The notes under the pieces: generated by a model
Told to the model about the DNA's origin: nothing
Seen by the model: only the letters and a program-made list of their open reading frames with translations
The model's database searches: none
Translations under genes and position numbers: made by a program
Part shown: piece by piece, positions 4,954 to 54,360 of the stretch
Layout of the letters: each line of letters opens with the position of its first letter
Position numbering within the stretch: the first letter of the stretch is position 1
From: a virus
Strand: one strand, 5' to 3'
Length of the DNA stretch: 64,000 bases
Virus record (IMG/VR): IMGVR_UViG_3300033153_005812
Span: 11,915 to 75,914 of that record

Positions 4954-4954
4954 G

Positions 4955-5488
4955 ATGAGAAATCTACAAGATTTAGTGCGTGAATTTAATGAAGCAAATG
5001 GATTTCCAGTCAATAGTTTGTTGCTGGATAAAAATGGACCGGCGAAAGGTCCTCTTTGGGTTTTATGGTATGTAAAGATTATAGGTTACATACTTTTGAT
5101 TCTTGGTAGAATCAGTGTCTGGCTCGACAAGCTGACAACAAAATTAGGACATAGAGATCCGAGGATCTTCAGGTGTCATATTATGGTAGATGAATTGGGA
5201 GAAACTTTGGTTGCTATCTCTAATAATGATGAGATAGAAGTTGCAGATGGATTAGCTGATTTAGCTTATGTTCTATTCGGGACAGCCGTCTTACACAATA
5301 TACCTTTAGAAACAATCTTCAGGGAGGTTCATCGTTCGAATTTAACGAAAGGATTTATTCCTGGCCAAGACGGTAGAATTAAAGGTCTTTATAGAACAAA
5401 GAAATATTCGCCACCGAATATCAAAGCTGCTATCTATGTTGGCAGAAAAATGAATGATGGAGGTACTACTGATGTCGTTGATAATTGA
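4955..5488 (+). CDS. MazG-like all-alpha NTP pyrophosphohydrolase (DR2231/dUTPase-like)
   Basis: DELGE...EVADGLADLAYV...EVHRSNLTK motifs; ATG at 4955 preferred. Confidence 0.75.
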   Translation: MRNLQDLVREFNEANGFPVNSLLLDKNGPAKGPLWVLWYVKIIGYILLILGRISVWLDKLTTKLGHRDPRIFRCHIMVDELGETLVAISNNDEIEVADGLADLAYVLFGTAVLHNIPLETIFREVHRSNLTKGFIPGQDGRIKGLYRTKKYSPPNIKAAIYVGRKMNDGGTTDVVDN

Positions 5489-6038
5489 AGGTTCTGATAA
5501 TTTAGGTAAAACTACTTTCGCCAAGAAACTTATAAGGTATGTTTGGGATCATGATAGATATCCTTGTATGTATTCTTGGATGACAAGGCCAAATGAAGAG
5601 ACATTCGACTTCTTCGAAAGTTATAAGATGATGATCAATCCTTATACAGTACAGGATAGATTTCATCTTGGGGCTTTAGCTTATCACGAAGATAGAATCT
5701 CAAATAGCAATTTGATTAAGATCGAAGAATGGATTCGAGATATAGGTGGGTTTGTAGTTTTATTCTATGCTAAGGATGAGGACTGGTATAAAGATCAAAT
5801 TGCTAAAGATAGAAGAGGCAACTTGCTTGCGAACGAAATTCTATGCAAAGGTAATTCTATTTTCACAGCTATCACTACTGGTCTTCATCCACTACGTCCA
5901 GATTTCAAATATGCTTTTGATATTAGTGGAGGGAATTATGTTAGCGATGAAAATATCGCACGTATTGCAGAAACTTGGATGAGATACAGACAAAGAGCAA
6001 TGGAACAACTTGTTAGGATCCAGAATGAATTGGTTTGA
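5472..6038 (+). CDS. P-loop nucleoside monophosphate kinase (thymidylate-kinase-like)
   Basis: LIIEGSDNLGKTT P-loop and DRFH motif; GGAGG RBS before ATG at 5472. Confidence 0.7.
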   Translation: MSLIIEGSDNLGKTTFAKKLIRYVWDHDRYPCMYSWMTRPNEETFDFFESYKMMINPYTVQDRFHLGALAYHEDRISNSNLIKIEEWIRDIGGFVVLFYAKDEDWYKDQIAKDRRGNLLANEILCKGNSIFTAITTGLHPLRPDFKYAFDISGGNYVSDENIARIAETWMRYRQRAMEQLVRIQNELV

Positions 6039-6261
6039 ACTTTTAGGTATAATTAGTTTGATTTTTGCAATAGCAGGGTCTCTATTAAATAATCGTAAAA
6101 TGATTGTTTGTTTCCCTATTTGGATGATTGCAAATTTAATATGTTTTGGAATGCATCTTCAAATTATTATAACTTTAGGTCAAGGTTGGTCGCTCGCTGC
6201 GAAAGATGTGGCTTTCATGTATATTTGTATCGACGGTTATTTTCGGTGGAGAAAAAAGTAG
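6025..6261 (+). CDS. small membrane protein, PnuC/SemiSWEET-like
   Basis: About three hydrophobic helices, PIWMIAN motif and C-terminal GYFRW. Confidence 0.45.
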   Translation: MNWFELLGIISLIFAIAGSLLNNRKMIVCFPIWMIANLICFGMHLQIIITLGQGWSLAAKDVAFMYICIDGYFRWRKK

Positions 6262-6328
6262 AATGGAATCGCATTTACAATTACAACTTTTAGAAGCTTT
6301 TGTAGGAGCTACAAAAGGAGACAAGACA

Positions 6329-6838
6329 ATGGAAGATCTAATTAAGAGAGTAATTCTGCAGTCTTTTAGAGACATCAAGAAAGCGGCGAGGAAAAATCAG
6401 AAGTGTCAGAGAAAAGGATGCGGCTGTGTTATTTTAGAAATCAACCTTCGAGAAAGTTTGATTCAACATTTCGCAGCCGTAAATGGACCCTCTGGTCCTA
6501 AGAATAAATGTTCTAATATCAAAGGAGCCTGCGGCTGTTCACATGCTGAACCGAGAGCTATTATGAAGTATCTAAAGCAACGAAAGCCCAGAATTAAGAG
6601 GGATTATATTAAGACTATTCTACTCACAACTTTTTCTTCGTGTGTGAATTGTGCTAATATCATCGTTGATTCTGGCGTCATAGATGTAGTTATATATGAG
6701 TTCCTTGCTACTCACTGGGCGACTCCGCCTCACGATGCAAAAAGTATGCTTGATCGTAGTCTTTTGCATTGGTCGAAGAAAGAGATTATAAAAGACAAGG
6801 ATAATAAGTTGATTAAAAAATGGCTTTTCGAGAATTAA
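6329..6838 (+). CDS. dCMP deaminase-like zinc deaminase
   Basis: CSHAE and SSCVNC zinc motifs, N-terminal C..RKGCGCVI; AAGGAG RBS before ATG at 6329. Confidence 0.75.
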   Translation: MEDLIKRVILQSFRDIKKAARKNQKCQRKGCGCVILEINLRESLIQHFAAVNGPSGPKNKCSNIKGACGCSHAEPRAIMKYLKQRKPRIKRDYIKTILLTTFSSCVNCANIIVDSGVIDVVIYEFLATHWATPPHDAKSMLDRSLLHWSKKEIIKDKDNKLIKKWLFEN

Positions 6839-9031: not shown

Positions 9032-9085
9032 AATATAGTTAGTGAAAATCAATATCACAAGGTTAAATTTTTAGGAGACAAAGAA

Positions 9086-9439
9086 ATGGGAAAATCGAAA
9101 AGCAAAGTTAGGGCCTCTGTGAAGAAGGCGAAGACGGTTAAAATCGCTATGAATAAAGAACTTGCGGCTTCTATCGCTGCTCTCGAGAAAGTCGTCGTGC
9201 CAACGAATCTTGTCGATTGCAGGGATCGGCTGATCGTCTCGCTTACTAAGTTGAACGATCGCATTCATACTGAGGCCAGAAAAGCTGTTAAGACCGCCGA
9301 GCGTGAAGCTGCGAAAGTCATTCGCGAAAAGGCGAAGGCCGAGCGGGCTGCGGCGAAGGCCGAGCGGAATAAAGCCAAAGCCGTAAAGCTCCAAGAGCAG
9401 ATTAGAAAGCTCCAGGCTCAGGTTAGTTCGCTCAGCTAA
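9086..9439 (+). CDS. Lys/Ala-rich basic coiled-coil protein
   Basis: 117 aa, very K/A/R-rich, AGGAG RBS, first gene after the promoter. Confidence 0.65.
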   Translation: MGKSKSKVRASVKKAKTVKIAMNKELAASIAALEKVVVPTNLVDCRDRLIVSLTKLNDRIHTEARKAVKTAEREAAKVIREKAKAERAAAKAERNKAKAVKLQEQIRKLQAQVSSLS

Positions 9440-9521
9440 AAGACGGTGAGCAAGTTTATCATAGATCGTTCTATGATACTGACGAGATAACGTAAAAATC
9501 AAATTTCTATGGAGACCAAAA

Positions 9522-10016
9522 ATGGCGAAATCAAATTCAAATGTCACAAAAGTAGGAGGAGCAGGAGCAGAGAAGTCGATCACCACAAAGGAAATCCCGG
9601 AAAAGGCAAAAGGCCGTGTTGACTTCCCGAAGAAATCTGCGATGTATCGAGACAAGGACGGAAACGTAATAACAGCATTGAACGCAGAAGGTTTACTACT
9701 TGCCGTGCCAGCGACAATCCTCGACGGGGAGAAAGTCGTATATTCCGGCTTTGATCCTCGGAAGCATAATCCGCTTAAGAAAAGCGATTTCGTTTCTATG
9801 GCGACATTTTTGCAATATCAAGGTTACGTCGCTCGTTCTCGTGCCGCTCGCCTTATCAAGGTCGCTGAGACCAAAGAAGCCGCAGCAAGTCGGCTTCTGA
9901 AATTCGGCGATGAGCAGACTCGCAAGAAGGCCGCAAAAATCGCCAAGATGCGTGATCAGCTCAAAGCTCTGGAAATGCAGCTCATGGAAGAGGGTATCGA
10001 TGTCTCGGACATCTAA
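9522..10016 (+). CDS. basic hypothetical protein
   Basis: 164 aa, GGAG RBS, followed by a terminator. Confidence 0.65.
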   Translation: MAKSNSNVTKVGGAGAEKSITTKEIPEKAKGRVDFPKKSAMYRDKDGNVITALNAEGLLLAVPATILDGEKVVYSGFDPRKHNPLKKSDFVSMATFLQYQGYVARSRAARLIKVAETKEAAASRLLKFGDEQTRKKAAKIAKMRDQLKALEMQLMEEGIDVSDI

Positions 10017-10030
10017 AAGCTATACTTGGA

Positions 10031-10064
10031 AACCAGAGGGTATGGAAACCCTCTGGTTATTTTT
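10031..10064 (+). terminator. intrinsic terminator
   Basis: AACCAGAGGG...CCCTCTGGTT stem followed by ATTTTT. Confidence 0.75.
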
Positions 10065-10099
10065 GTCGTTGTTATTGTAAAAGTAAGGTATAAAGGAGA

Positions 10100-10498
10100 A
10101 TGAGAATGTCATTGAGTGAAAAAGACCGAAAACTCAAAGATATGGCAGATATGAAAAAAATTATTAAGCATCAACAAGCTCATTTCGCTCAAGTCCTTAC
10201 TCATTTCGATGAACAAATCGCTCGCATTGATGAGCAGATTGTAGAGCATGATTTAGAAATCGTAGCTTTACAAGAAAGAAAAGCTGTAGTAGCTCGGCAC
10301 TTTATTGAAGCTCCAGAACAGCTTATAGTTTTGGCTCAACATCTGAGAGATGTTGAAAAGAAGGAAAGTCTTCTTAAAACCGATGGAAAAAGTAAGGTGA
10401 AAAAAGTCGCTCGAATCAAAAAACGTATCGAAAAATTACGTGAGAAGTTGAGTCGAATGGATCCCGATGGAAGAAATCAAAACAAAACAACTCCTTGA
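10100..10498 (+). CDS. coiled-coil hypothetical protein
   Basis: 132-aa ORF with AAGGAG RBS. Confidence 0.55.
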   Translation: MRMSLSEKDRKLKDMADMKKIIKHQQAHFAQVLTHFDEQIARIDEQIVEHDLEIVALQERKAVVARHFIEAPEQLIVLAQHLRDVEKKESLLKTDGKSKVKKVARIKKRIEKLREKLSRMDPDGRNQNKTTP

Positions 10499-10754
10499 AC
10501 TAATCGAGCAATGGACACGAGCTGAAATTATGGCTCGTCATGCTCCGCTCATTGGTTTAGATTTCACTAATTATGCTGAAGTTCAAATTGAGAAAGAAAA
10601 TGAGATAAGGCGATTAGTTTTTGGGACAGATAACCTAATTCAGTTAGGACTCAAGTGGAAGTTATTGAAAGATAAGAAAACTCAGAATAAAGAAAATGCA
10701 ATAAAGCAATTCCAGCGACTACAAAAAGAGTTAGCTGAGATGATGAAAACATAA
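10467..10754 (+). CDS. hypothetical protein
   Basis: 95-aa ORF overlapping the previous gene. Confidence 0.5.
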   Translation: MEEIKTKQLLELIEQWTRAEIMARHAPLIGLDFTNYAEVQIEKENEIRRLVFGTDNLIQLGLKWKLLKDKKTQNKENAIKQFQRLQKELAEMMKT

Positions 10755-10820
10755 GTGTTATTGTACTGATTCAATACCATCACTGTAAAAGAAAGAACTG
10801 ACTTTTTCTCTCTTCTCCCG

Positions 10821-10897: not shown

Positions 10898-11968
10898 ATG
10901 GATTATGTAGATCTAAACAAGTTATGGCATGAGACACTTTTCGACGTTAATCTTCGCGGCCATATACTTAACAGCAGAGTCGGATATTGTAAAGAGATTA
11001 TAGGTTTTCAAACAACGCTAACTTATCCTCTTCATAATATCCTCTTTGCTCCAAAGCGAAAATTTTCGTTGGCCTATGCTTGTGCTGAAATGCTCTGGTA
11101 TCTTTCTGGTACTGGTAGTATCAAAATGATTCAGGCTTATGCTCCACAGTATGAGAAATTTGCTGAAGATGGATGGGCCTACGGAGCATACGGACATCGA
11201 TGGAATCATAATCCTGGCTTTGTAAATGCGAAAGCCTCTCTAATAGAAGGTCTTACGAGGCAAGATTGCGAAATCGACATCGAAAATCAACTCTCTGCTT
11301 TGGTGCATCTATTGAGGGCAGATCCAAATACCCGTCAAGCTATCATGACGATGTGGGATAGCGGTGATCTTATTCATGCAATCGCAAGGGATCATAAAGA
11401 CCTCCCTTGTACTCTTTCATTGATGTTTTTTGTCCGAGACAACAGACTTCATCTTGTAGCTACAATGAGATCTAACGATGCGTGGCTCGGTCTTCCGTAT
11501 GATATCTTTTGCTTCACAACTCTACAAAGGATTATTGCAGCGGAGCTTGGATTAGAATTAGGAGCTTATATTCACCAAGCTGGAAGTGAGCACATCTACG
11601 AAAAGAATCAGGAGAAGATAGATGAAATCCTTAGGATAGAAAGTGAATCGAAGTGGTCCGGTGAAGGAGCGATTCTGCTATATCCTTATCCTCTAAACTG
11701 GAATCACAAACGGCGAGACTACGATTTGCAGCACAATGTTAAAGCTGCTCTTTCATTGGAAAAGGAGATTCGAAAAGCGACAATGGATGAACATTGTTTA
11801 GCGAAAGGTATTGCAGGGAATCAAAAAGCATGGAAAGAAATTGATCCTCTTTTCAAAGATCTTGTTCTTGGTTGTGCAACGAAATGGACTCATGTTCCGA
11901 ATGATTGGTTTGATAATCCCCTCTACGCAAGTTGTCAACGATATACGGAGAATCTAAATGAAGCTTGA
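10898..11968 (+). CDS. thymidylate-synthase-family enzyme, probable dCMP hydroxymethylase
   Basis: AEMLWYLSG, AYG, TRQA, KDLPCT (catalytic Cys) and SEHIYE; RSNDAWLGLPYD has Asp at the position of E. coli ThyA Asn177, as T4 gp42 does (cytosine specificity). Confidence 0.8.
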   Translation: MDYVDLNKLWHETLFDVNLRGHILNSRVGYCKEIIGFQTTLTYPLHNILFAPKRKFSLAYACAEMLWYLSGTGSIKMIQAYAPQYEKFAEDGWAYGAYGHRWNHNPGFVNAKASLIEGLTRQDCEIDIENQLSALVHLLRADPNTRQAIMTMWDSGDLIHAIARDHKDLPCTLSLMFFVRDNRLHLVATMRSNDAWLGLPYDIFCFTTLQRIIAAELGLELGAYIHQAGSEHIYEKNQEKIDEILRIESESKWSGEGAILLYPYPLNWNHKRRDYDLQHNVKAALSLEKEIRKATMDEHCLAKGIAGNQKAWKEIDPLFKDLVLGCATKWTHVPNDWFDNPLYASCQRYTENLNEA

Positions 11969-12812
11969 TAAAATTCCATTCGGAGAATGCACGTCTAAAG
12001 ATCTCGCCGATTATATGAATGAGCGACACAGTATTTGGATGAGGAGAGATAAAGGTGAATGGAAACCATGGACAACCGATGTGATTCTCCAACAATATAA
12101 ATTCACTAACGTATTTCGACAGCTCGACAAAGGTACTGTTGCTCTACGAAAAATGTTAAAGAGTCAAACAGATCCTATTCTTATTCTTTTCAATATTATT
12201 TGGTATAGATATTTTAACTGGTACAAACATGCTGAAGAGCTCGGCTTCGTCAATGATTATTCACAACTTGAAGACTTCATAATAACCAAAGGGAGAAGAT
12301 GCGATAAAATTTTTACTGGAGCTTGGATGACAACTGGAGTTTCTTGTGAAGATAAACATATAACCTATCTTCGAGCTTGTAAAGAAGCTTGGGATAAACG
12401 AGATATGCTCTATCATCTTGTTTCTTCTTCTTCTAAATTAGAAACGGTTTGCGTACTCCTCAAAGATTTATATATGGTGGGTAGATTCTTAGCTTATGAA
12501 TTAGCTTGTGATTTAAGGTTCACAAAACTTCTTGATGAAGCGACAGATATATTGACGTTCGCAAATCTTGGTCCTGGAGCTCAAAGAGGACTTCGGCGAT
12601 TAGGAATGCCGCATAAAAATCAAAAAGAAGGTCTTACTTCTATGCGAAAATTATACGATGTTCTTATGGAGCATTATCTCAGCTATTATATTGTTAACGC
12701 TTCTTGGCCGTTTGAACTGCGAGAGGTAGAACATAATCTTTGTGAGTTTGATAAATATATGCGAACAAAAAATGGAGAGGGACATCCACGAAGTAAGTTT
12801 CCTGGAGTGTAA
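11958..12812 (+). CDS. aGPT-Pplase1-like DNA base-modification protein (HhH-glycosylase-like fold)
   Basis: ERHSIW.RR..G...PWT.D.IL..YKFTNVFR.LDKGT, G.F.AYE...DL, GPGA.RGL and EHNLCEFDKY motifs. Confidence 0.8.
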   Translation: MKLDKIPFGECTSKDLADYMNERHSIWMRRDKGEWKPWTTDVILQQYKFTNVFRQLDKGTVALRKMLKSQTDPILILFNIIWYRYFNWYKHAEELGFVNDYSQLEDFIITKGRRCDKIFTGAWMTTGVSCEDKHITYLRACKEAWDKRDMLYHLVSSSSKLETVCVLLKDLYMVGRFLAYELACDLRFTKLLDEATDILTFANLGPGAQRGLRRLGMPHKNQKEGLTSMRKLYDVLMEHYLSYYIVNASWPFELREVEHNLCEFDKYMRTKNGEGHPRSKFPGV

Positions 12813-12813
12813 A

Positions 12814-12990
12814 ATGGATATCGATGAAGTTAAAAAATGGTTGCAAAGTTATTTGAGGTTAGAAAATCATGGTCATGCCGGTCGTCTTTTATCTGAAGAA
12901 TATAAAGAATATCGGAAAGAAGATCCAAAACCAGATTGTAATTTAATGACATGGTGCGTGAAAAAAGCATTGGAAAAATTAAATAGTTGA
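12814..12990 (+). CDS. small hypothetical protein
   Basis: ATG at 12814 after GGAG; fills the gap inside the operon. Confidence 0.45.
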   Translation: MDIDEVKKWLQSYLRLENHGHAGRLLSEEYKEYRKEDPKPDCNLMTWCVKKALEKLNS

Positions 12991-12998
12991 GGTGTAAT

Positions 12999-13790
12999 AT
13001 GAACATAGGAATAATCGGTTGCGGTGTTGTTGGAACTGCTTTGAAAAATGGTTTTAGATTCTTAGAACACGAAGTGTCTATCGCAGATCCTAAGTTTGGT
13101 ACGAGCACTTTAGATGTCTGCCATACTGAAATAGTATTTATTTGTGTTCCTACAAACTGTAACTTAAATGGGAGTTGTGATCTTTCTATTGTTAAGAGAG
13201 TTCTACAACATCTCAGAGCTTATCGGTATAACGGAATCGTAGTGTTAAAATCTACTGTAGTACCGGGAACAACTGAAAAGCTATCGAAAGAATTCAATAG
13301 AGAAATAGTTTTTGTCCCAGAGTTTCTTCACGAAAGATATGCTACAGAAGATTTTATTTATCACCAAGATATATTGGTGATAGGAACTGATGATAAAGAG
13401 TTAAGAAAGGTAGTTGCGAATATTCATAAAGACCTACCAAAGAGAGTTGTGACTTGTTCTAAAACAGAAGCAGAATTGGTTAAGTATTTCAATAATGTTT
13501 ACAACGCAACTCTGATAACTTTCGCTAATAGTTTTTACGAAGTGTGTGTTGGACTCGGTGTTAATTACGACAATGTTAAATCGATCGTTACATTGAGGGA
13601 TCATATAAACGATGTGTATCTCGATTGTAATAATTCGTTAAGAGGATTTGGCGGCCCTTGTTTACCTAAAGATACGAAAGCATTAGCTTTTCTTGCAGAA
13701 CAATTGAATACCGATGTTAAGTTTTTTGATATGCTTTTATCAGAAAATGTTAAGTACGAAACAACAGTGTTGAAAGGAATGCGATCATGA
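12999..13790 (+). CDS. UDP-glucose/GDP-mannose 6-dehydrogenase family (short form)
   Basis: GIIGCGVVG Rossmann motif, ICVPT, KSTVVPGTT, PEFL, AELVKY and catalytic GFGGPCLPKD; no C-terminal UDP-binding domain. Confidence 0.85.
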   Translation: MNIGIIGCGVVGTALKNGFRFLEHEVSIADPKFGTSTLDVCHTEIVFICVPTNCNLNGSCDLSIVKRVLQHLRAYRYNGIVVLKSTVVPGTTEKLSKEFNREIVFVPEFLHERYATEDFIYHQDILVIGTDDKELRKVVANIHKDLPKRVVTCSKTEAELVKYFNNVYNATLITFANSFYEVCVGLGVNYDNVKSIVTLRDHINDVYLDCNNSLRGFGGPCLPKDTKALAFLAEQLNTDVKFFDMLLSENVKYETTVLKGMRS

Positions 13791-14734
13791 ATATATTAGT
13801 AACAGGTAGTGAAGGTTCTTTGATGCAATTTGTCATTCCTCTGTTGGTTACTAAGAAATACAATGTAACTGGTATAGATATCAATGAAGGCGGTGGATCA
13901 AAAACCAAACGCAATTATGAGTTTATTAACGCAGATTGTAGAGAGATTACAGAACTCGAAGATGTTTTTCATAATAGATTTTTCGATTATGTAATTCATA
14001 GTGCTGCTACTATTTACGGTGTTGTAGGATTTAATAAATTCGGTGCAGATATAATTTCTAATGATCTTATTTCTACTGCGAATACGCTACGATGTAGTCT
14101 TACACATGAAATAAAAAAGTTCGTCTTCATAAGTTCTTCGATAGTCTATGAGCAAGTACCGAAAAATTATAATAACATAGATCAATTTCCAGCTCCGAAA
14201 ACCTATTATGGTCTTTCAAAATTTGTTGGTGAAAAATTATGTCGAGCATATCGAGAGCAATATAATCTGCCTTATATTATATGGAGACCGTTTAATATAA
14301 TTACTCCATACGAGAAAGCTCAAGCGACACAGGGATTTAGTCATGTCTTTGCAGATTTTATTCAACAAATTGTAATTGATCGCAAAGAAACTATCGGTAT
14401 TCTTGGCGATGGTAGACAAGTTAGATGCTTCACTTGGATAAAAGATGTGGCTGAAGCTATTGCAGATTTATCTTTTGGCTCTGAACAAGGCGAATTCAAT
14501 CTTGGGAATGTCGAACCTCTAACTATGACCGATTTGGCTGTATTGATTTATGTGACTGCTCAACGTTTGAACTTGATACCTAAAGAACAAGATCTGAAAT
14601 TCTATCATACACCGCCTATGGTCAACGATGTTAGATATAGAGTACCTTACATGGAAAGAACTGAAAAGGTGTTCAATTGGCGAGCAAAATTGAAGATCAA
14701 AGATTCAATTGAAAAATGTTTGAAGGAAATGTGA
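13787..14734 (+). CDS. extended SDR NAD-dependent nucleotide-sugar epimerase/decarboxylase
   Basis: NILVTGSEG, HSAA, SSSIVY, YGLSK (YxxxK), RPFN and GDGRQVRCFTWIKD. Confidence 0.85.
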   Translation: MNILVTGSEGSLMQFVIPLLVTKKYNVTGIDINEGGGSKTKRNYEFINADCREITELEDVFHNRFFDYVIHSAATIYGVVGFNKFGADIISNDLISTANTLRCSLTHEIKKFVFISSSIVYEQVPKNYNNIDQFPAPKTYYGLSKFVGEKLCRAYREQYNLPYIIWRPFNIITPYEKAQATQGFSHVFADFIQQIVIDRKETIGILGDGRQVRCFTWIKDVAEAIADLSFGSEQGEFNLGNVEPLTMTDLAVLIYVTAQRLNLIPKEQDLKFYHTPPMVNDVRYRVPYMERTEKVFNWRAKLKIKDSIEKCLKEM

Positions 14735-14737
14735 TCG

Positions 14738-15523
14738 ATGGATAATCAAAATCTAATACTCTCATTAAATGAAGCTATATCGTCTTCAAATATAAGATTA
14801 GGAGTTTTAGACTTTAGAAAATTGCAAAGTTTAGTGGGAGCAACCCCAATTCAAATGTCTGTAAAAGTTTTTTGGGGTGAAGATATAACTGTAATTTTAC
14901 CAGAATATATTTCTTGTCGCCTTTTCTTAGATGAATTTTTTGAAAAAGACTTAACAAAGTTTATCATAGAACACTTAAATTCTGGTATGACTTTCATCGA
15001 TGTAGGAGCTCATATCGGTTACTTTTCTTTATTAAGTTCAGTTTTAGTTGGAAATACAGGTCAAGTCCATTCATTCGAGCCTACGAAAGATGTGTTTCAG
15101 ATTTTACAAAAGAATTGTTCAAACAAAGAAAATATCACAATGAATAGTGAAGCAGTTTTTTCGAAAGTCGAAAGACTTGTATTGAACACCTACGGACTAA
15201 AATGGTCGGCGTTCAATTCTTTATTCGTTCCGAGAATATTAGGGATCTTATCAAAAGTGAAGTGTAAAAGAATGGAGGTTCAAACAACTACGTTAGATCA
15301 ATACTGTGATGATAAACATATTCAGCCTGATTTTATTAAAATCGATGCAGAGAAATCGGAATTGAATATTTTAATAGGAGCAGAAAAAACGCTTAAAAAA
15401 GACCATCCGATTATTTCTGTAGAAAGCGGGGATGAAGAAAATGATGCACAGATTATAGACTTTATGCGAGCCTTGAATTATTCATATCAAAAGGTCTTAA
15501 ACAGTAATTTAATTTTCGTTTGA
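14738..15523 (+). CDS. FkbM-family SAM methyltransferase
   Basis: FIDVGAHIGY, SFEP, TTLD and IKIDAEKSE. Confidence 0.85.
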   Translation: MDNQNLILSLNEAISSSNIRLGVLDFRKLQSLVGATPIQMSVKVFWGEDITVILPEYISCRLFLDEFFEKDLTKFIIEHLNSGMTFIDVGAHIGYFSLLSSVLVGNTGQVHSFEPTKDVFQILQKNCSNKENITMNSEAVFSKVERLVLNTYGLKWSAFNSLFVPRILGILSKVKCKRMEVQTTTLDQYCDDKHIQPDFIKIDAEKSELNILIGAEKTLKKDHPIISVESGDEENDAQIIDFMRALNYSYQKVLNSNLIFV

Positions 15524-15562
15524 ACTAATATAAGTTCTGCATAAAAATAAGGATTTCTGATT

Positions 15563-16402
15563 ATGAAAATTATTATTCCTACAAAATCAAGAACAGATCT
15601 TCAATTTACTGCTAATCAACTTATGAGAGCAAATATACCTGATCAATACGAATGCTTTCTGGTAGTTCCTCGAAACGAAAAGGACAACTACGCAAAAAAT
15701 TCTATAAGCGGTTTTCGAACTATCTCTGTAGATTGTGAGGGAATTAACAATGTTCGTCAATATATCATGGAACATTGTAAGGTCGAAGATAATAAGATAC
15801 TAATGATAGATGATGATTTGAGATTCTTTTATCGACCTTGCATAGAAGATGTTTCATTGTTCCAAGCTACTGGGGATCAAGTACTTGAAATGATTCAATG
15901 GTTAGAAAGCCAACTTGATAAATTCGCTCATTGTAGTATCCCTGCTCGGACACAAAATTTTCAATTGACCCGTCGTATAGAACGAGCAGAAAGTTTCGAA
16001 CTACAAACAGTTCGCCCTTATCGCCTTTACGGTTTTCGCCAAGACATAGTGTTAGGAGAAGAGTTAGATTTTCATGCTGGATTGCGAATAAATACGATGG
16101 ATGATTTCCACATGACTCTTAACCTTTTAGAACTCGGTTATCCTAACATCATATCTTGTAGATGGGCACACGATCAATGCACTTCTAATTCTCGTGGTGG
16201 GTGTTCTACTTATCGTGATTTGGAATTATTAAGAGTGTGTGCTTTGAATCTTAAAGAAAACCATCCTCAAGTTGTTAAGATTGTGCACAAAGAAACAAGC
16301 TCTTCTTGGGGAGGGACACCTAATAATCCAGTAACAAGAACAGACGTTAGAATACAATGGCAAAAGGCTTTAGGAATAAGAGCAACTGAGAGCAAACTAT
16401 AA
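15563..16402 (+). CDS. TAGT/GREB1-like GT-A glycosyltransferase
   Basis: IIIPTKSR, GINNVRQYI, MIDDD, DDFHMTL..L..GY, GGCSTYR and C-terminal I.WQKA, as in circularly permuted phage DNA glycosyltransferases. Confidence 0.75.
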   Translation: MKIIIPTKSRTDLQFTANQLMRANIPDQYECFLVVPRNEKDNYAKNSISGFRTISVDCEGINNVRQYIMEHCKVEDNKILMIDDDLRFFYRPCIEDVSLFQATGDQVLEMIQWLESQLDKFAHCSIPARTQNFQLTRRIERAESFELQTVRPYRLYGFRQDIVLGEELDFHAGLRINTMDDFHMTLNLLELGYPNIISCRWAHDQCTSNSRGGCSTYRDLELLRVCALNLKENHPQVVKIVHKETSSSWGGTPNNPVTRTDVRIQWQKALGIRATESKL

Positions 16403-16408
16403 CACTCA

Positions 16409-16477
16409 CCTATAGGGTCGGCCTACTCCCGCAGAGGCTCTGAGCGATCGCTGGGGAAGCCGATATTAGGCTGTAAA
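16409..16477 (+). repeat. dispersed 70-bp intergenic element, copy B
   Basis: ACTCCCGCAGAGGCTCTGAGCGATCGCTGGGGAAGCCGATATTAGGCTGTAAA; 5' end diverged. Confidence 0.85.
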
Positions 16478-16479
16478 CT

Positions 16480-17403
16480 ATGCTTTACATACTAATCTCA
16501 AAAATCGAGCTTAGAACCTTCAAAATTTGGGCAGGACACTTAACTGCTATCAGAGAGGTTTTAGACATAAATGGAAGTCGTTATCGACAAATAGATATAC
16601 TCCATGCAAAGCAAAAGACATTCAAAACAAACGATATTATCATCAATATTGGAAATCACCAATACGCTGGTTCTCAATTCTTAAATGAATTAGCCGAGAG
16701 TGTTTCAAAAGCAGGTAGAACAGTTTTCTTTATGGATGATTACACGGCTCCTCCAGCAACACAATTACGTAAAGCTCTCACTAAAAGTTCTAATCTTTTA
16801 GTGACAAACATCAAAGATTTGAGCATCTTAACGCAACGAAAATCTCTTCAGCATTTTGAACCTGTCTATGTAAATCTAAACAAAGCTTCTTTCAAAAAAC
16901 TCCCTCTCAAAGCTCCACAAGTTCCTGGCAGCTTTATTTATTGGGGTTCTTGTCGACGAGGAAGAGAACAAAGTTTCTATCGTTATTTCAAACCAAATCT
17001 TTATCCGCTTTATATTTCTTCGAGTGATAGGGGGCACAATAAGTATTGTAATTTATACATAAATTATAGACCGTTAGAAAAAATGCTGCTACCTGAGGAC
17101 TTACAAAAATATGGATTCACAGTAAATATTCGTGATAAGAAGCAACCAAAGATGGCTCCAGCAAATAGATTTTATGAAGCTATAGGTGCTGGACTTCCAA
17201 TTTTCTTTGACCATGAATGTATTCCACGAATTGAAACTCCACTCTGCGTAAAAGACTATATTGTTTCTGAAGCAGAACAACTGCTTGAAAAAGATCTGCA
17301 AAGAACACAAGTAGAACAACGGAAGCTCTGGGGGCAACGTAATTATCGAATAGAGTTAGTGAATGAATTAACCGAAATATTTTTTAAGCATGGTATTTCA
17401 TAA
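16480..17403 (+). CDS. GT-B glycosyltransferase resembling T4 DNA beta-glucosyltransferase
   Basis: FIYWGSCRRGRE resembles BGT IYGGSFRSGQRE; NRFYEAIGAGLPIFFD is a GT-B C-terminal motif. Confidence 0.6.
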   Translation: MLYILISKIELRTFKIWAGHLTAIREVLDINGSRYRQIDILHAKQKTFKTNDIIINIGNHQYAGSQFLNELAESVSKAGRTVFFMDDYTAPPATQLRKALTKSSNLLVTNIKDLSILTQRKSLQHFEPVYVNLNKASFKKLPLKAPQVPGSFIYWGSCRRGREQSFYRYFKPNLYPLYISSSDRGHNKYCNLYINYRPLEKMLLPEDLQKYGFTVNIRDKKQPKMAPANRFYEAIGAGLPIFFDHECIPRIETPLCVKDYIVSEAEQLLEKDLQRTQVEQRKLWGQRNYRIELVNELTEIFFKHGIS

Positions 17404-17939
17404 TGAATTATGGACTCAACTATTTTGAACACACATTACGCAAAATGAGCATGACAGCAGAAGATATTTGTCAACGAAGATGGAAATTTATAACTCCTAC
17501 GAAAGCAATACGAATTTTAGACTATGGTTGTGGAGTAGGTTGGTTCCGTGCTTTCAAACCAGATAAGAACCTCATTGTAGATACTTACGATGTAGGGAAT
17601 TACCCTCAAACGGGTATAAATGAAATGGAATATGATCTTATTTGTTTTTGGGACTCTTTAGAGCATATTCCAAATTTAGATGAAATAAATTGGCTATTAA
17701 CAAGAACCGAATTTGTTGCCATTTCAATCCCTATATTTCTTGGTGATATGCAGCAAGAAGAATTTAGAAAATGGAAGCATTATCGCCCAAATGAACACTT
17801 ACATTATTTCACACTACAGACATTAGCGAATTTCTTTGAAGAACGTGGGTTTGAAATGTTCGAGAAAAATCAAAACGAATGTCCTCCACGAGAAGATGTT
17901 TGGTCAATTTTGTATAGGAGAAAACGTAATGCAAGTTAG
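17403..17939 (+). CDS. class I SAM-dependent methyltransferase
   Basis: ILDYGCGVG, WDSLEHIP and EHLHYF. Confidence 0.8.
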   Translation: MNYGLNYFEHTLRKMSMTAEDICQRRWKFITPTKAIRILDYGCGVGWFRAFKPDKNLIVDTYDVGNYPQTGINEMEYDLICFWDSLEHIPNLDEINWLLTRTEFVAISIPIFLGDMQQEEFRKWKHYRPNEHLHYFTLQTLANFFEERGFEMFEKNQNECPPREDVWSILYRRKRNAS

Positions 17940-20295
17940 AAAACGTGACGGACGAATTGTTGACTTCGACTCATATCGTATTCTCAAAGCTATGAAAGGA
18001 GCTTTTACTGAACTTAACATCGATATTCTTTCAGGTGGAAAAATAGATGCTCTAACTGCAAAAGTGATTGACTTTCTTCCAAGTGTGAAAATCATAGATA
18101 TTGAAGTGATTCAAAACACTGTAGAGAAGATCTTAATGGAAGAAGGATATTACGAAGTTGCAAAAGCATATATTCTTTATCGTCAACAAAGAACCTCGCT
18201 TCGAGAGATAGAACCAGATCCAAATGCTATTTCAGATTACATTCATGCCGCGAAATACGCTCGTTACATCCCAAGTAAAAAGCGAAGAGAGACTTATCAC
18301 GAAACCATTAAAAGAGTCGAAATAATGCACAAGAAAAAGTATCCTCATCTCACAGCAGAAATTGGAGATGCTTTTCAATTTGTTCATGATAAATTTGTCC
18401 TCCCGTCTATGCGGAGTATGCAATTTGGAGGCAAAGCTATCGAGAGACGAAATGCTCGGATGTATAATTGTAGTTTCACTCTCGTAGATCGGCCTCGTGT
18501 TTTTGGCGATATGATGTACTTGCTTCTTTGTGGATGTGGAGTAGGATTCAGTGTTCAAAAGCGACATGTCGCAAGACTTCCATTACTCAAAGTAATAGAT
18601 TTCAACTTAACTTATTTTCATGATGTTAAAGATTCAATCGAAGGATGGGCAGATGCGGTGAACGCTCTAATAGATTCTTTTCTACGAGGGTATCATATAG
18701 AATTTAATTTTGAAGCAATACGTCCACCCGGAAGTATTCTTAATAGTGGTGGAAAAGCTCCTGGGCATGTTTCGTTAAAAGAATCTCTCGAAGCTACAAG
18801 ACAGATTTTGCTTTTAGCTCAAGGGAGAAAATTGAAGCCAATAGAATGTCACGATATTATCTGTCATCTGAGTAAAGCAGTTCTTGCAGGCGGAATTCGA
18901 CGAAGCAGTTTAATTTCATTGTTCTCTGCAGATGATGACGATATGTTGTACTGTAAAGATAGAGCTAATTTTGATTTTCAACTTAAGAATCCACAGCGAG
19001 CTTTAGCGAATAACAGTGTTGTCTTAGACAGAGAGAATTACACCTTTGCAGATTTCGCAAGAATTCTACATTTGAATAAAGTAAATCATGGTGATCCAGG
19101 CTTTGTATTCTTAGAAGATTTCGATACTGGTGTTAATCCTTGCGGGGAGATTGGCATCGACCCTGTCTTAAAAGTAGCTATGAGAGATACCTATGACGAT
19201 GTATGGTCGAAGAAAAATAAAGATTCGGCTCTCGTAAATCAATGCAAGACAGGTTTTGGATTTTGCAACCTTGTAGAAGTCAACGCTGCAAAGTGTCGAA
19301 CTTACGAACAATTTTTAGAGGCTTGTAAAGCTGCGAGTTTCATCGCTACTTTGCAAGCGGGTTATACGGACTTTCCTTATCTCGGAGAAGTAACTGAAAA
19401 AATCGTACAACGGGATGCTCTTATCGGTGTAAGTATAACAGGGATGATGGACAATTCTTGGATCTTTGATGAGGGTTATTTAGAAGGAGGAGCTGAAATA
19501 GTAAAAGCTACGAATGCGAAGACAGCAAAATCGATTGGAATCAATCCTGCGAAACGATGCACTTGTATAAAACCAAGTGGAACAGCGAGCTTAGAACTCG
19601 GATGCGTAGGGAGCGGAATCCATCCCCATCATTCAAAGCGATACTTTCGGAGGATTACTGCAAATCCTTTGGAGCCAGTCGTACAGTATTTCAGAAAAGC
19701 TAATCCCCAGATGGTCGAGACAAAACCAAACGGAGATCTCTGTATAACGTTCCCGGTTAAAACAGATGGTCTAACTGTGAATAATATATCAGCAAGAGAA
19801 TTTCTTGATAAGGTCTTTCGCACTTATAAAGGCTGGATTCTTACTGGTCACAGACAAGGTCAAACGCACAATGTAAGTTGTACTCTTGTTGTTGACGATC
19901 AAGAATGGGAAGAAGCTTTTGATTATATTTGGAATCACAGAGATAAAATCAGTTCGATGACTTTTTTACCAAAACAAAGCGATAAACAAATTCCGTTCTG
20001 CCCCAGAGAATCAGTTACGACAGTCAAAGATATCGCTCACTTCGATTCTTTAGTAAAAGGCTATAAACCTGTAGACTATTCTAAAATGATCGAAGAAGAA
20101 GATGTGACTGTGAAAGACGCCGCCTGTAGTGGTATGGTTTGCGATTTAGGTCTCGATTTTTGTAGTGGAATTGGCCTACGCGTCTTTCAAAATGAATTTG
20201 ATTCTCGTATAAAGACCTTCACATATCGAGGTTTGACATTTGAACTATATGAACAAAGAAACGGATATTTTATTGCTAAGCGAATTATGGAGTGA
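17929..20295 (+). CDS. nrdJ: class II (B12-dependent) ribonucleotide reductase with N-terminal ATP cone
   Basis: VRKRDG ATP cone, PSMR, YNCS, GCGVGFS, GGIRRS, NPCGEI, FCNL, KPSGT; no beta-subunit gene; ATG at 17929 after AGGAG. Confidence 0.85.
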   Translation: MQVRKRDGRIVDFDSYRILKAMKGAFTELNIDILSGGKIDALTAKVIDFLPSVKIIDIEVIQNTVEKILMEEGYYEVAKAYILYRQQRTSLREIEPDPNAISDYIHAAKYARYIPSKKRRETYHETIKRVEIMHKKKYPHLTAEIGDAFQFVHDKFVLPSMRSMQFGGKAIERRNARMYNCSFTLVDRPRVFGDMMYLLLCGCGVGFSVQKRHVARLPLLKVIDFNLTYFHDVKDSIEGWADAVNALIDSFLRGYHIEFNFEAIRPPGSILNSGGKAPGHVSLKESLEATRQILLLAQGRKLKPIECHDIICHLSKAVLAGGIRRSSLISLFSADDDDMLYCKDRANFDFQLKNPQRALANNSVVLDRENYTFADFARILHLNKVNHGDPGFVFLEDFDTGVNPCGEIGIDPVLKVAMRDTYDDVWSKKNKDSALVNQCKTGFGFCNLVEVNAAKCRTYEQFLEACKAASFIATLQAGYTDFPYLGEVTEKIVQRDALIGVSITGMMDNSWIFDEGYLEGGAEIVKATNAKTAKSIGINPAKRCTCIKPSGTASLELGCVGSGIHPHHSKRYFRRITANPLEPVVQYFRKANPQMVETKPNGDLCITFPVKTDGLTVNNISAREFLDKVFRTYKGWILTGHRQGQTHNVSCTLVVDDQEWEEAFDYIWNHRDKISSMTFLPKQSDKQIPFCPRESVTTVKDIAHFDSLVKGYKPVDYSKMIEEEDVTVKDAACSGMVCDLGLDFCSGIGLRVFQNEFDSRIKTFTYRGLTFELYEQRNGYFIAKRIME

Positions 20296-29783: not shown

Positions 29784-29839
29784 CGGCTTCCCCAGCGATC
29801 GCTCAGAGGTCGTACAGGAGTAAGTCGATATAATAAGGC
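29784..29839 (-). repeat. dispersed element, copy C (inverted, partial)
   Basis: CGGCTTCCCCAGCGATCGCTCAGAG is the exact reverse complement of the core of copies A, B and D. Confidence 0.8.
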
Positions 29840-54290: not shown

Positions 54291-54360
54291 AGCCTATAAC
54301 ACCGACTCGCTCCCGCAGAGGCTCTGAGCGATCGCTGGGGAAGCCGATATCAGGCTGTAA
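54291..54360 (+). repeat. dispersed 70-bp intergenic element, copy D
   Basis: One mismatch versus copy A (1970-2039). Confidence 0.9.

Follow-up and report, generated by a model that had tools for sequence, protein, structure and literature searches.

The 64,000-nucleotide stretch analysed here (the window) comprises bases 11915-75914 of the 75,914-bp uncultured virus record IMGVR_UViG_3300033153_005812, and the subject of this work is a block of genes on its + strand at 10898-17939. The block is read as a cytosine-hypermodification module in which a conserved core is joined to an acquired tailoring cassette, and this reading is given a probability of about 0.6. The core consists of a thymidylate synthase (TS) homologue, a protein of aGPT-Pplase clade 1 (ORF2, hereafter Pplase1), a GT-A glycosyltransferase (GT) of the TAGT family (ORF7) and a GT-B glycosyltransferase (ORF8, hereafter GT8). 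The cassette consists of a short nucleoside diphosphate (NDP)-sugar-dehydrogenase-like protein, an extended short-chain dehydrogenase/reductase (SDR) and an FkbM-family methyltransferase, and a terminal class I methyltransferase (hereafter MT23) follows GT8. It is likely that 5-hydroxymethylcytosine (5hmC) is made and glycosylated by this phage.

In the proposed pathway, the TS homologue would convert dCMP to 5-hydroxymethyl-dCMP, as suggested by three signature residues whose role has been established by experiment in other enzymes. By analogy with T4, 5hmC would replace C in DNA through the joint action of PolA of the phage and three enzymes encoded upstream, namely a P-loop kinase, a nucleoside triphosphate (NTP) pyrophosphohydrolase and a dCMP deaminase. 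After replication, GT8 and ORF7 would add one or two sugars to the hydroxyl of 5hmC, as their fold, family and conserved synteny indicate. The position of the dehydrogenase, SDR and FkbM genes suggests that their products may turn a host NDP-hexose into an oxidised, epimerised and possibly O-methylated donor for one of the GTs. Pplase1 would probably perform C6-thiol chemistry on the 5-hydroxymethylpyrimidine in DNA, which is suggested by a fold like that of amino-acid:DNA transferases and by an invariant Cys-Glu pair.

The synthase, the predicted modified base and the glycosyltransferases

Family searches of the window proteins were performed with Pfam, PHROG and NCBIfam profiles, and the features of the block and its upstream genes are shown in Table 1. 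The best match of the TS homologue in the PDB is the CMP 5-hydroxymethylase MilA (E 2e-29), and true TSs are matched at 3e-17. The residue rules for TS homologues are experimentally grounded. In E. coli numbering, N177D confers cytosine specificity, an acidic residue at L143 accompanies hydroxymethyl and not methyl products, and D169N is the mark of flavin-dependent 5-hydroxy-dCMP synthases (PMC13326640). The window TS was aligned with T4 gp42, RB69 gp48, M6 gp58 and PhiJL001 gp24, all fetched from GenBank. The region around Cys146 reads KDLPCT in the window TS, SDFMCT in T4 gp42, LEYPCT in RB69 gp48 and KD.PCN in both M6 gp58 and PhiJL001 gp24. The region around 169-177 reads MRSNDAWLGLPYD, MRSNDVVFGFRND, MRSQNCAVVMQLD and RSND.IWGAYGAN in the same order.

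The Cys of KDLPCT aligns to the catalytic Cys in T4 gp42, RB69 gp48 and the solved TSs. Asp143 (L143D) stands three residues before this Cys in KDLPC and is also found in T4 gp42 (SDFMC) and MilA. Asp177 (N177D) stands in LGLPYD, eight residues past D169, and is shared with T4 gp42 and RB69 gp48, with Asn in M6 gp58 and PhiJL001 gp24. Position 169 is Asp in the window (RSND) and Asn in the same column of RB69 gp48 (RSQN). A 5-hydroxy-dCMP synthase of the RB69 gp48 type was ruled out because Asp is kept at 169, and a dUMP-type synthase was ruled out because position 177 is Asp instead of Asn. In a quick tree, the window TS groups with the synthases of four related viral loci (L001, L002, L003 and L007; fetched loci are given L numbers) and a GenBank 'pyrimidine hmase' of the Asp type with 89% support, and a 57-row N177 clade, which itself has 99% support, is separate from this Asp group. 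The TS homologue is very probably a 5-hydroxymethyl-dCMP synthase of the gp42 type and is predicted to convert dCMP. The first-pass annotation, a model's notes on the same DNA, had predicted a modified cytosine made with a TS-family enzyme, and cytosine rather than thymine as the target agrees with the L143D/D169/N177D signature common to the window TS and T4 gp42.

A thymine-derived base was also considered, namely 5-hydroxymethyluracil (5hmU) and its glycosylated form, with Asp177 not dictating cytosine here. Most synthases linked to Pplase1 are of the N177 (dUMP) type, the cultured carriers of Pplase1 (M6, PaMx11 and PhiJL001) are T-hypermodifying or have SPO1-like dUMP hydroxymethylases, and the upstream dCMP deaminase could supply dUMP. 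However, Asp177 is an established cytosine determinant that is present in T4 gp42, RB69 gp48 and MilA, and the window synthase groups with D177 enzymes, outside the N177 clade of the quick tree. T4 also has a dCMP deaminase, and the upstream enzyme therefore does not discriminate between a C and a T target. A thymine-derived base is thus considered very improbable.

The three genes upstream of the block would permit the replacement of dC, as do gp56, gp1 and cd in the T4 analogy. The NTP pyrophosphohydrolase is a candidate dCTP-depleting enzyme, like T4 gp56. The P-loop kinase has viral thymidylate-kinase and deoxynucleoside-kinase-like clusters as its atlas neighbours, does not exhibit similarity to the 5hmU DNA kinase (5-HMUDK) M6 gp54, and is probably a dNMP kinase that phosphorylates 5hm-dCMP. 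The block had been described as self-contained, which is partly right; the nucleotide-level genes sit upstream at 4928-6838, and the starting NDP-hexose must be derived from the host.

ORF7 matches PF20691 with 34.1 bits (cut-off 27.5) and phrog_842, 'beta-glucosyl-HMC-alpha-glucosyltransferase', with an E of 1.9e-34 (residues 1-270 on profile positions 5-257 of 270). Homologues of ORF7 adjoin Pplase1 and TS in ~30 viral loci and in PhiJL001. The top Foldseek match of the GT8 model is T4 BGT (E 2e-8). Alignment of both structures with VIA-align gives a Z of 21.2 and an rmsd of 3.3 with 296 of 307 residues aligned, followed by T4 AGT (Z 18.1) and by all other GT-B enzymes at 17.4 or below. Between the GT8 family and T4 BGT, only the local R..E nucleotide-binding motif aligns (R230/E233 with RvwE of BGT). 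GT8 is BGT-like in its modelled fold and is not a member of that family at the sequence level. GT8 also has homologues with 66-70% identity. Homologues of GT8 are found inside six TS-Pplase1 clusters of both base types (L001, L007, L010, L013, L022 and L071), which argues for DNA rather than protein as its substrate. The expectation of two DNA-type GTs is upheld by the fold of GT8, by the likeness of ORF7 to TAGT and T6 beta-alpha-GT, and by the presence of both in other TS-Pplase1 clusters.

The module resembles that of the T-even phages (T4 gp42, gp1, gp56 and alpha/beta-gt; T2/T6 beta-alpha-gt) in its Asp-type TS with the same three residues as gp42, in the nucleotide-pool set of NTP pyrophosphohydrolase, kinase and dCMP deaminase, in a GT-B of the BGT fold, and in a GT-A that falls in the PHROG of the T6 second-sugar transferase. 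Unlike the T-even phages, the window phage is plausibly siphovirus-like and has PolA. Its synthase is 20% identical to gp42 and has an additional 100-aa C-terminal extension, and GT8 does not have detectable sequence similarity to BGT. The window also adds Pplase1, a sugar-nucleotide cassette and methyltransferases, which the T-even phages do not have.

Table 1. Positions of the block, its intergenic repeat and the upstream nucleotide-pool genes in the window, with the matches that define them.
Feature	Position	Strand	Matches and remarks
NTP pyrophosphohydrolase (PRA-PH/MazG-like)	4928-5488	+	PF01503 E 1.6e-13; phrog_671 E 5e-18; kept in L007
P-loop kinase	5454-6038	+	Walker A GSDNLGKT; weak thymidylate-kinase PHROG match; kept in L002, L003, L007
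dCMP deaminase-like protein	6206-6838	+	PF00383 E 1.2e-7; phrog_174; 53-62% identity in L002, L003, L007
TS homologue, 5-hydroxymethyl-dCMP synthase signature	10898-11968	+	PF00303 E 1.3e-28; ~100-aa C-terminal extension
aGPT-Pplase clade 1 (Pplase1, ORF2)	11958-12812	+	PF18723 E 7.6e-45, full length; overlaps TS gene by 11 nt
Small ORF	12814-12990	+	58 aa from ATG 12814 (most likely start); 82 aa if GTG 12742
Short NDP-sugar-dehydrogenase-like protein	12999-13790	+	263 aa from most likely start; PF03721 and PF00984 only
Extended SDR, NDP-sugar epimerase/dehydratase type	13787-14734	+	PF01370 E 7e-40; S/Y/K triad present
FkbM-family S-adenosylmethionine (SAM) methyltransferase, candidate sugar O-methyltransferase	14738-15523	+	PF05050 E 5e-21
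GT-A, TAGT / T6 beta-glucosyl-HMC-alpha-glucosyltransferase family (ORF7)	15563-16402	+	PF20691; phrog_842
~70-bp GC-rich palindrome-containing repeat	16409-16477	.	Fills gap between the two GT genes
GT-B, T4 BGT-like fold (GT8, ORF8)	16480-17403	+	AlphaFold model, pLDDT 93.4
Class I SAM methyltransferase (MT23)	17403-17939	+	PF13489 Methyltransf_23 E 1.5e-15

Pplase1 and the conserved core in relatives

The scan of viral contigs with Pplase1 identified 74 loci with a homologue. A TS homologue is present in 66 of the 74, mostly a few kb away, and many of the loci also have a TAGT-like or GT8-like GT. Asp177 is found among the Pplase1-linked synthases only in L001, L002, L003 and L007, in addition to the window. 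In many loci of the N177 type, and in PhiJL001, a cultured marine phage, a TAGT-like GT either adjoins Pplase1 and the dUMP hydroxymethylase or lies between them. TS-Pplase1-GT is therefore a recurrent core on either pyrimidine, and the window is a rare cytosine version of it. The first-pass annotation was right in its label for Pplase1 and gave the protein a side role, whereas Pplase1 is the most conserved partner of the synthase.

The closest relatives keep the TS-Pplase1-GT core ahead of the ribonucleotide reductase (RNR) gene and differ in what accompanies it. L007 carries TS, Pplase1, TAGT, GT8 and RNR and nothing else. In L001, the closest relative, TS, Pplase1 and a TAGT-like gene precede a radical-SAM/SPASM gene and an unknown gene of 315 aa, after which come GT8 and RNR. 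In L003, a split MT-A70 and then an unknown gene of 297 aa separate TS, Pplase1 and TAGT from RNR. In the window, the dehydrogenase, SDR and FkbM genes separate Pplase1 from TAGT, and MT23 follows GT8.

Several features of these relatives were also observed. The radical-SAM/SPASM and 315-aa genes of L001 (L001:3920-5943) occupy the slot of the cassette, which suggests another tailoring chemistry on the same core. The MT-A70 gene of L002 and L003 consists of two overlapping ORFs downstream of TAGT (131 aa and 82 aa; L003:11836-12389), which may have arisen by a frameshift or be programmed. A TAGT-like GT, Pplase1 and an N177-type hydroxymethylase are adjacent in L060-L065, L031, L033, L059 and others, and in PhiJL001 gp19-gp24 (L180:5974-9823). 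From their sequences, these N177-type clusters, that of PhiJL001 included, are predicted to give glycosylated 5hmU (base-J-like) DNA.

Pplase1 matches PF18723 with 153.9 bits (cut-off 25), with residues 14-272 on profile positions 5-276 of 281. The model of Pplase1 is all-helical (pLDDT 94), and the PF18723 domain makes up the whole protein. PF18723 is presently named 'HMUDK_hel' in Pfam, '5-hmdU DNA kinase, helical domain'. Pplase1 as a kinase was rejected because the protein is all-helical, has no beta-sheet or Walker motif, and has longer homologues that add no domain. The Walker A motifs among the + strand ORFs of the window are found only in other genes.

The best structural match of Pplase1 is PaMx11 gp46/PUGT, with a Z of 11.6 over 221 residues. 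The next matches are MjOgg (Z 11.0) and EndoIII, AlkA and OGG1 (Z 7-9), and the queuosine-monophosphate hydrolase Qng1 is also matched. The aligner cautions that helical proteins may reach a Z of ~11.6 by chance, without kinship, and the Pfam clan history and the motif were therefore also relied on. On these grounds the fold of Pplase1 appears to be helix-hairpin-helix DNA-glycosylase-like. PaMx11 gp46/PUGT is a clade-2 aGPT-Pplase, an amino-acid:DNA transferase that moves glycine onto phosphorylated 5hmU, and essential Cys and Glu residues have been described for clade-2 aGPT-Pplases. The motif LCEFDKY is invariant in 54 Pplase1 homologues (Cys262 and Glu263), and this pair lies near the C-terminus, where its position appears to resemble that of the catalytic Cys247 of PUGT. 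Membership of Pplase1 in clade 2 by sequence was rejected, as only the fold is alike and a search for homologues of the clade-2 transferase M6 gp51 found none in the window or the complete genome (E 0.1). By sequence, Pplase1 is homologous to M6 gp55 (E 4e-33). Two positions of Pplase1 are fixed differently in the cytosine clade, namely Y123W (beside the invariant A122) and V59G. These are taken as a lead and not as evidence, as they come from four related sequences only.

These results bear on the possibility that the main product is an adduct made by Pplase1 at the C5-methylene of 5hmC, with the GTs acting on a fraction of sites or on the adduct. Such an adduct, proposed by analogy with clade 2, would be consistent with the tight coupling of Pplase1 to the synthase (the 11-nt overlap and the TS in 66/74 loci), with the structural closeness to PUGT, with the placement of Cys262-Glu263 and with the clade-specific Y123W and V59G. 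However, clade-2 chemistry requires a phosphorylated hydroxymethyl group, and neither a 5-HMUDK nor a clade-2 homologue is found in the 75.9-kb genome. M6 gp55 is also dispensable, as reconstitution in M6 lysates without gp52, gp53 and gp55 still gave the glycinylated intermediate (PMC8989533), and the Z of 11.6 is within the possibly generic range for a helical protein. A Pplase1-made main product is considered improbable.

The thymidine clusters of M6, PaMx11 and ViI consist of a dUMP hydroxymethylase, 5-HMUDK and aGPT-Pplases of clades 1 and 2 (PMC8989533, PMC5889632). The window shares with them a clade-1 aGPT-Pplase beside a TS-family hydroxymethylase and the neighbourhood of RNR and PolA. 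In contrast to them, the window synthase is of the cytosine type, the 5-HMUDK, clade-2 transferase, pyridoxal-phosphate and radical-SAM genes are absent, and glycosyltransferases stand in place of the amino-acid branch.

The putative tailoring cassette and sugar donor

The main argument that the cassette serves DNA modification is positional, as the same slot holds varying tailoring genes in the relatives. The spacing within the block ranges from the 11-nt overlap of TS and ORF2 to a 77-nt gap (16403-16479). The dehydrogenase and SDR genes overlap by 4 nt, and the GT8 and MT23 genes have one base in common. A consensus scan identified no terminator-like site within 10898-17939, and the nearest one upstream is at 10031-10058. 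The cassette genes have an overall GC of 0.32-0.35, slightly under that of the flanking genes. The GC at third codon positions (GC3) is similar to that of the flanks, and the composition therefore does not prove recent transfer of the cassette.

The dehydrogenase keeps its catalytic motifs, GFGGPCLPKD (GFGGSCFPKD in 3vtf) and AELVKY..N, with the Cys, Lys and Asn. It matches TIGR03026 with 157.7 bits, below the cut-off of 189.8, on profile positions 73-302 of 413. The C-terminal UDP-binding domain PF03720 was not matched in this protein and is also absent from all 120 homologues listed. The protein ends where this domain should start, and the SDR gene begins 4 nt before its stop. The dehydrogenase has 1,983 homologues, and the 120 listed are mostly ~265 aa long, with the same two domains and 50-63% identity; the closest among them are P0002 and P0003 (63% identity). 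This large family has the same two-domain form, which indicates that the dehydrogenase is not decayed. Loss of the domain by decay or frameshift, or its encoding in the small ORF, was rejected because the whole ~265-aa family is without the domain and the small ORF is matchless. To our knowledge, no member of the two-domain family has been characterised.

The nearest PDB entries of the SDR are Pal, GalE and the UDP-glucuronate (UDP-GlcA) 4-epimerase of B. cereus, each at ~25% identity and about equally distant. In the motif ISSSIVYE of the SDR, the residue aligned to S128 of the B. cereus enzyme (ISTSSVYG) is Ile. In UXS/ArnA decarboxylases this position is the catalytic Glu after Ser/Thr, in a motif of the STSEVYG type. 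The SDR does not have this decarboxylase Glu, so that a pentose product is disfavoured. As far as the motif indicates, the SDR more likely makes an epimer or a 4-keto sugar.

The dehydrogenase scans covered 25 viral and 80 metagenome loci, 105 in total (L075-L179). An SDR gene directly follows the short dehydrogenase gene in 56 of the 80 metagenome loci, and an SDR is present in 94 of the 105. Short dehydrogenases occur in metagenome viral contigs, several of them from Tara ocean samples (e.g. L077:3226-4035 and L084:7965-8750). The neighbours of the dehydrogenase-SDR pair in viral contigs are further SDRs, FkbM, GT1 and B12-radical-SAM genes. On the presumably cellular 397-kb contig L164, the dehydrogenase (9980-10798) has a Wza-like exporter, Polysacc_synt_2 and GT2 as its neighbours. 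The location of this pair in a polysaccharide cluster indicates that the pair acts on nucleotide sugars. For the same reason, the sub-case in which the dehydrogenase, without a UDP-binding domain, oxidises glucose already on DNA is judged very unlikely. The 105 loci have sugar contexts without the DNA-modification genes, and the pair would thus be a mobile nucleotide-sugar module that is joined to a DNA-modification core, among the data reached, only in this phage.

The FkbM protein matches PF05050 with 76 bits (cut-off 22.7) and TIGR01444 with 93.4 bits (cut-off 37.7), with a weak match to RfbT, and its atlas neighbours are all FkbM clusters. The single-protein scan of viral contigs with FkbM found no close relative. 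MT23 has at least 209 homologues of ~170-180 aa. The single-protein scan with MT23 found nothing, and the scan with a profile of MT23 homologues found 26 viral loci, in which the neighbours are unrelated or unannotatable. MT23 is absent from the relatives L001 and L007, and its membership of the pathway is doubtful. Position is the evidence for a role on DNA of both the dehydrogenase-SDR pair and MT23.

The first-pass annotation had proposed that the phage makes its own donor (UDP-glucuronate and an epimer or pentose derived from it) and may O-methylate the sugar. A sugar-nucleotide module is indeed present in the operon, with a dehydrogenase that is without the UDP-binding domain and below the family cut-off, and the pentose is the part of this proposal that is disfavoured. 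The FkbM call is solid and its gene is inside the operon, and MT23 does not have a link to DNA-modification genes elsewhere. The chance that the cassette gives a non-glucose donor for DNA is placed somewhat below even, and an O-methylated sugar on DNA is doubtful.

The cassette could also be a passenger. The base would then be ordinary mono- or di-glucosyl-5hmC made from host UDP-glucose, and the dehydrogenase, SDR, FkbM and MT23 would serve another glycan on a virion protein or a host surface polysaccharide. This is consistent with the polysaccharide cluster of L164 and the viral sugar clusters in which the pair occurs with other GTs, FkbM and radical-SAM genes, with the separation of the pair from the core genes in all loci scanned, and with the unrelated contexts of the MT23 homologues. 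L007 also operates with TS, Pplase1, TAGT and GT8 alone, and Gtf3 and GtfC, which are GTs of Ser-rich-repeat proteins, rank after the T4 enzymes among the structural matches of GT8. However, the cassette is inside the operon in the Pplase1-GT interval, where the genes overlap or nearly touch and no terminator interrupts them. The slot carries other tailoring-type genes in relatives (radical-SAM/SPASM in L001), which fits a variable tailoring position, and published DNA-glycosylating phages have donor-synthesis genes beside their DNA GTs. A passenger cassette is regarded as rather unlikely.

The specific product that we put forward, tentatively and as possible rather than probable, is 5-(glycosyloxymethyl)cytosine with a uronic acid or an epimer of it, possibly O-methylated, with the donor made through the two-domain dehydrogenase and the SDR and with a cytosine-adapted Pplase1 as a second DNA-level enzyme. 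Several observations weigh against this product and against the hypermodification module as a whole. The source is an uncultured virus record, and the chemistry is predicted from genes alone. The N177 (dUMP) type is found in 61 of the 66 Pplase1-linked synthases. All characterised aGPT-Pplase chemistry acts on 5hmU after phosphorylation, and no homologue of the kinase M6 gp54 was found in the window or the complete 75.9-kb genome at E 0.1. GT8 does not belong to a Pfam, PHROG or NCBIfam family, and the hhalign probability of its match to T4 BGT is 0.3, which is not significant. The domain missing from the dehydrogenase binds UDP in every characterised UDP-glucose/GDP-mannose dehydrogenase. Homologues of TS, Pplase1, TAGT and GT8 are found in 0 of the 105 dehydrogenase loci, and the 26 MT23 loci do not have the other operon genes, save for one weak SDR-like match (L203).

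Phage-coded donor synthesis beside DNA GTs has been shown or proposed for RB69 and DLP3 (UDP-arabinose) and RL38JI (UDP-galactofuranose) (PMC13326640), and for Carin-5/YerA41 (PMC12686479). The window resembles RB69 and DLP3, which have arabinosyl-5-hydroxycytosine, and RL38JI, which has hexosyl-5-hydroxycytosine, in a TS homologue that makes the acceptor as a mononucleotide, in DNA GTs that add one to three sugars and in adjacent phage-coded NDP-sugar donor genes (PMC13326640). Unlike the window synthase, which keeps D169, their synthases are D169N enzymes that make 5-hydroxy-dCMP. Their donor genes encode arabinose-5-P isomerase, kinase/pyrophosphorylase and phosphatase or mutase, whereas those of the window encode the dehydrogenase-like protein, SDR and FkbM.

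Large-scale catalogues exist of ThyS-linked GT-A/GT-B clusters that include epimerases and secondary GTs, and the operon fits the description of the ThyS-/5mYOX-associated metavirome GT clusters of Pyle et al. (bioRxiv 10.1101/2023.12.21.572611). Hexose, N-acetylhexosamine (HexNAc) and heptose adducts were reconstituted there from E. coli metabolites, and a dehydrogenase-type donor module, FkbM methylation or a Pplase1 partner is not described in the part consulted. SP-15, Carin-5 and YerA41 also have sugars on DNA, with glucuronate in SP-15, and a block of nucleotide-sugar and GT genes beside the polymerase (PMC5977210, PMC12686479). In contrast to the window, their bases derive from thymine and carry a dihydroxypentyl linker and a phosphate, and these phages are myoviruses with unrelated gene sets.

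The literature consulted gave no description of a clade-1 aGPT-Pplase that has a synthase of the cytosine type as its partner, no dehydrogenase/SDR/FkbM donor module in such a DNA-modification cluster and no function for the two-domain dehydrogenase family. A blastn search of the operon block against 50,697 phage records gave no match. What is new is the gene combination, and DNA sugar modification as anti-restriction and phage-made donors are already known. The earlier statement that this combination is unrecognised holds for the exact set, while the concept has been published (bioRxiv 10.1101/2023.12.21.572611, PMC13326640, PMC12686479).

Hypermodified bases decide whether phage DNA is cut by restriction enzymes, type IV systems and CRISPR nucleases, and the enzymes that make them serve 5hmC labelling and sequencing. 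Pplase1 with a cytosine-type synthase and no kinase is a natural case that could reveal the function of a widespread clade-1 protein. The ~2,000 'UDP-glucose dehydrogenases' of the two-domain family do not have a nucleotide-binding domain, and the member found here may feed a DNA glycosyltransferase. The swappable slot suggests that phages diversify their DNA glycans through cassette exchange. If the sugar is plain glucose, the operon is an ordinary distant analogue of the T-even phages.

Other features of the record and the window

The record has direct terminal repeats and an estimated completeness of 100%. The + strand of the window carries replication genes (primase-helicase, PolA, RNR, DNA methyltransferase and exonuclease) and virion genes (terminase, portal, MuF-like head protein, major head protein, tape-measure protein and tail fibre genes). 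A siphovirus-like phage is plausible. The nine + strand ORFs that had been placed at 10898-17939 are found in the ORF list at exactly these coordinates. Eight of their nine labels are borne out by family or structure searches, and the small ORF is unsupported as a gene, as it does not have a match in Pfam, PHROG or NCBIfam or a homologue in any fetched locus. The ORF list starts the small ORF at 12742 (12742-12990) and the dehydrogenase at 12987 (12987-13790). Sequence searches of the PDB with Pplase1, MT23, FkbM and the P-loop kinase found nothing useful.

The repeat between the two GT genes has other intergenic copies at 1970-2039, 54291-54360 and 29784-29839 (reverse complement). All four copies have the invariant core CTCTGAGCGATCGCTGGGGAAGCCG, and three have CAGAGGCTCTGAGCGATCGCTGGGGAAGCCGATAT in common. 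The repeat may have a regulatory role, serve as a site of recombination or be a miniature mobile element.

The 543-aa N6/N4 DNA methyltransferase at 20292-21923 matches PF01555 over residues 26-537. This span is covered by a profile of 221 positions, which indicates a very large insertion in the catalytic domain. The RNR gene (17990-20295) has a GC3 of 0.50, and the ORF at 9522-10016 has a GC of 0.485 and a GC3 of 0.50, compared with a GC3 of ~0.25-0.33 in their neighbours; both may be of different origin. The + strand ORF at 9086-9439, which would encode 117 aa between PolA and the operon, has the Walker-A-like motif GDKEMGKS and overlaps a 194-aa minus-strand ORF at 9071-9655.

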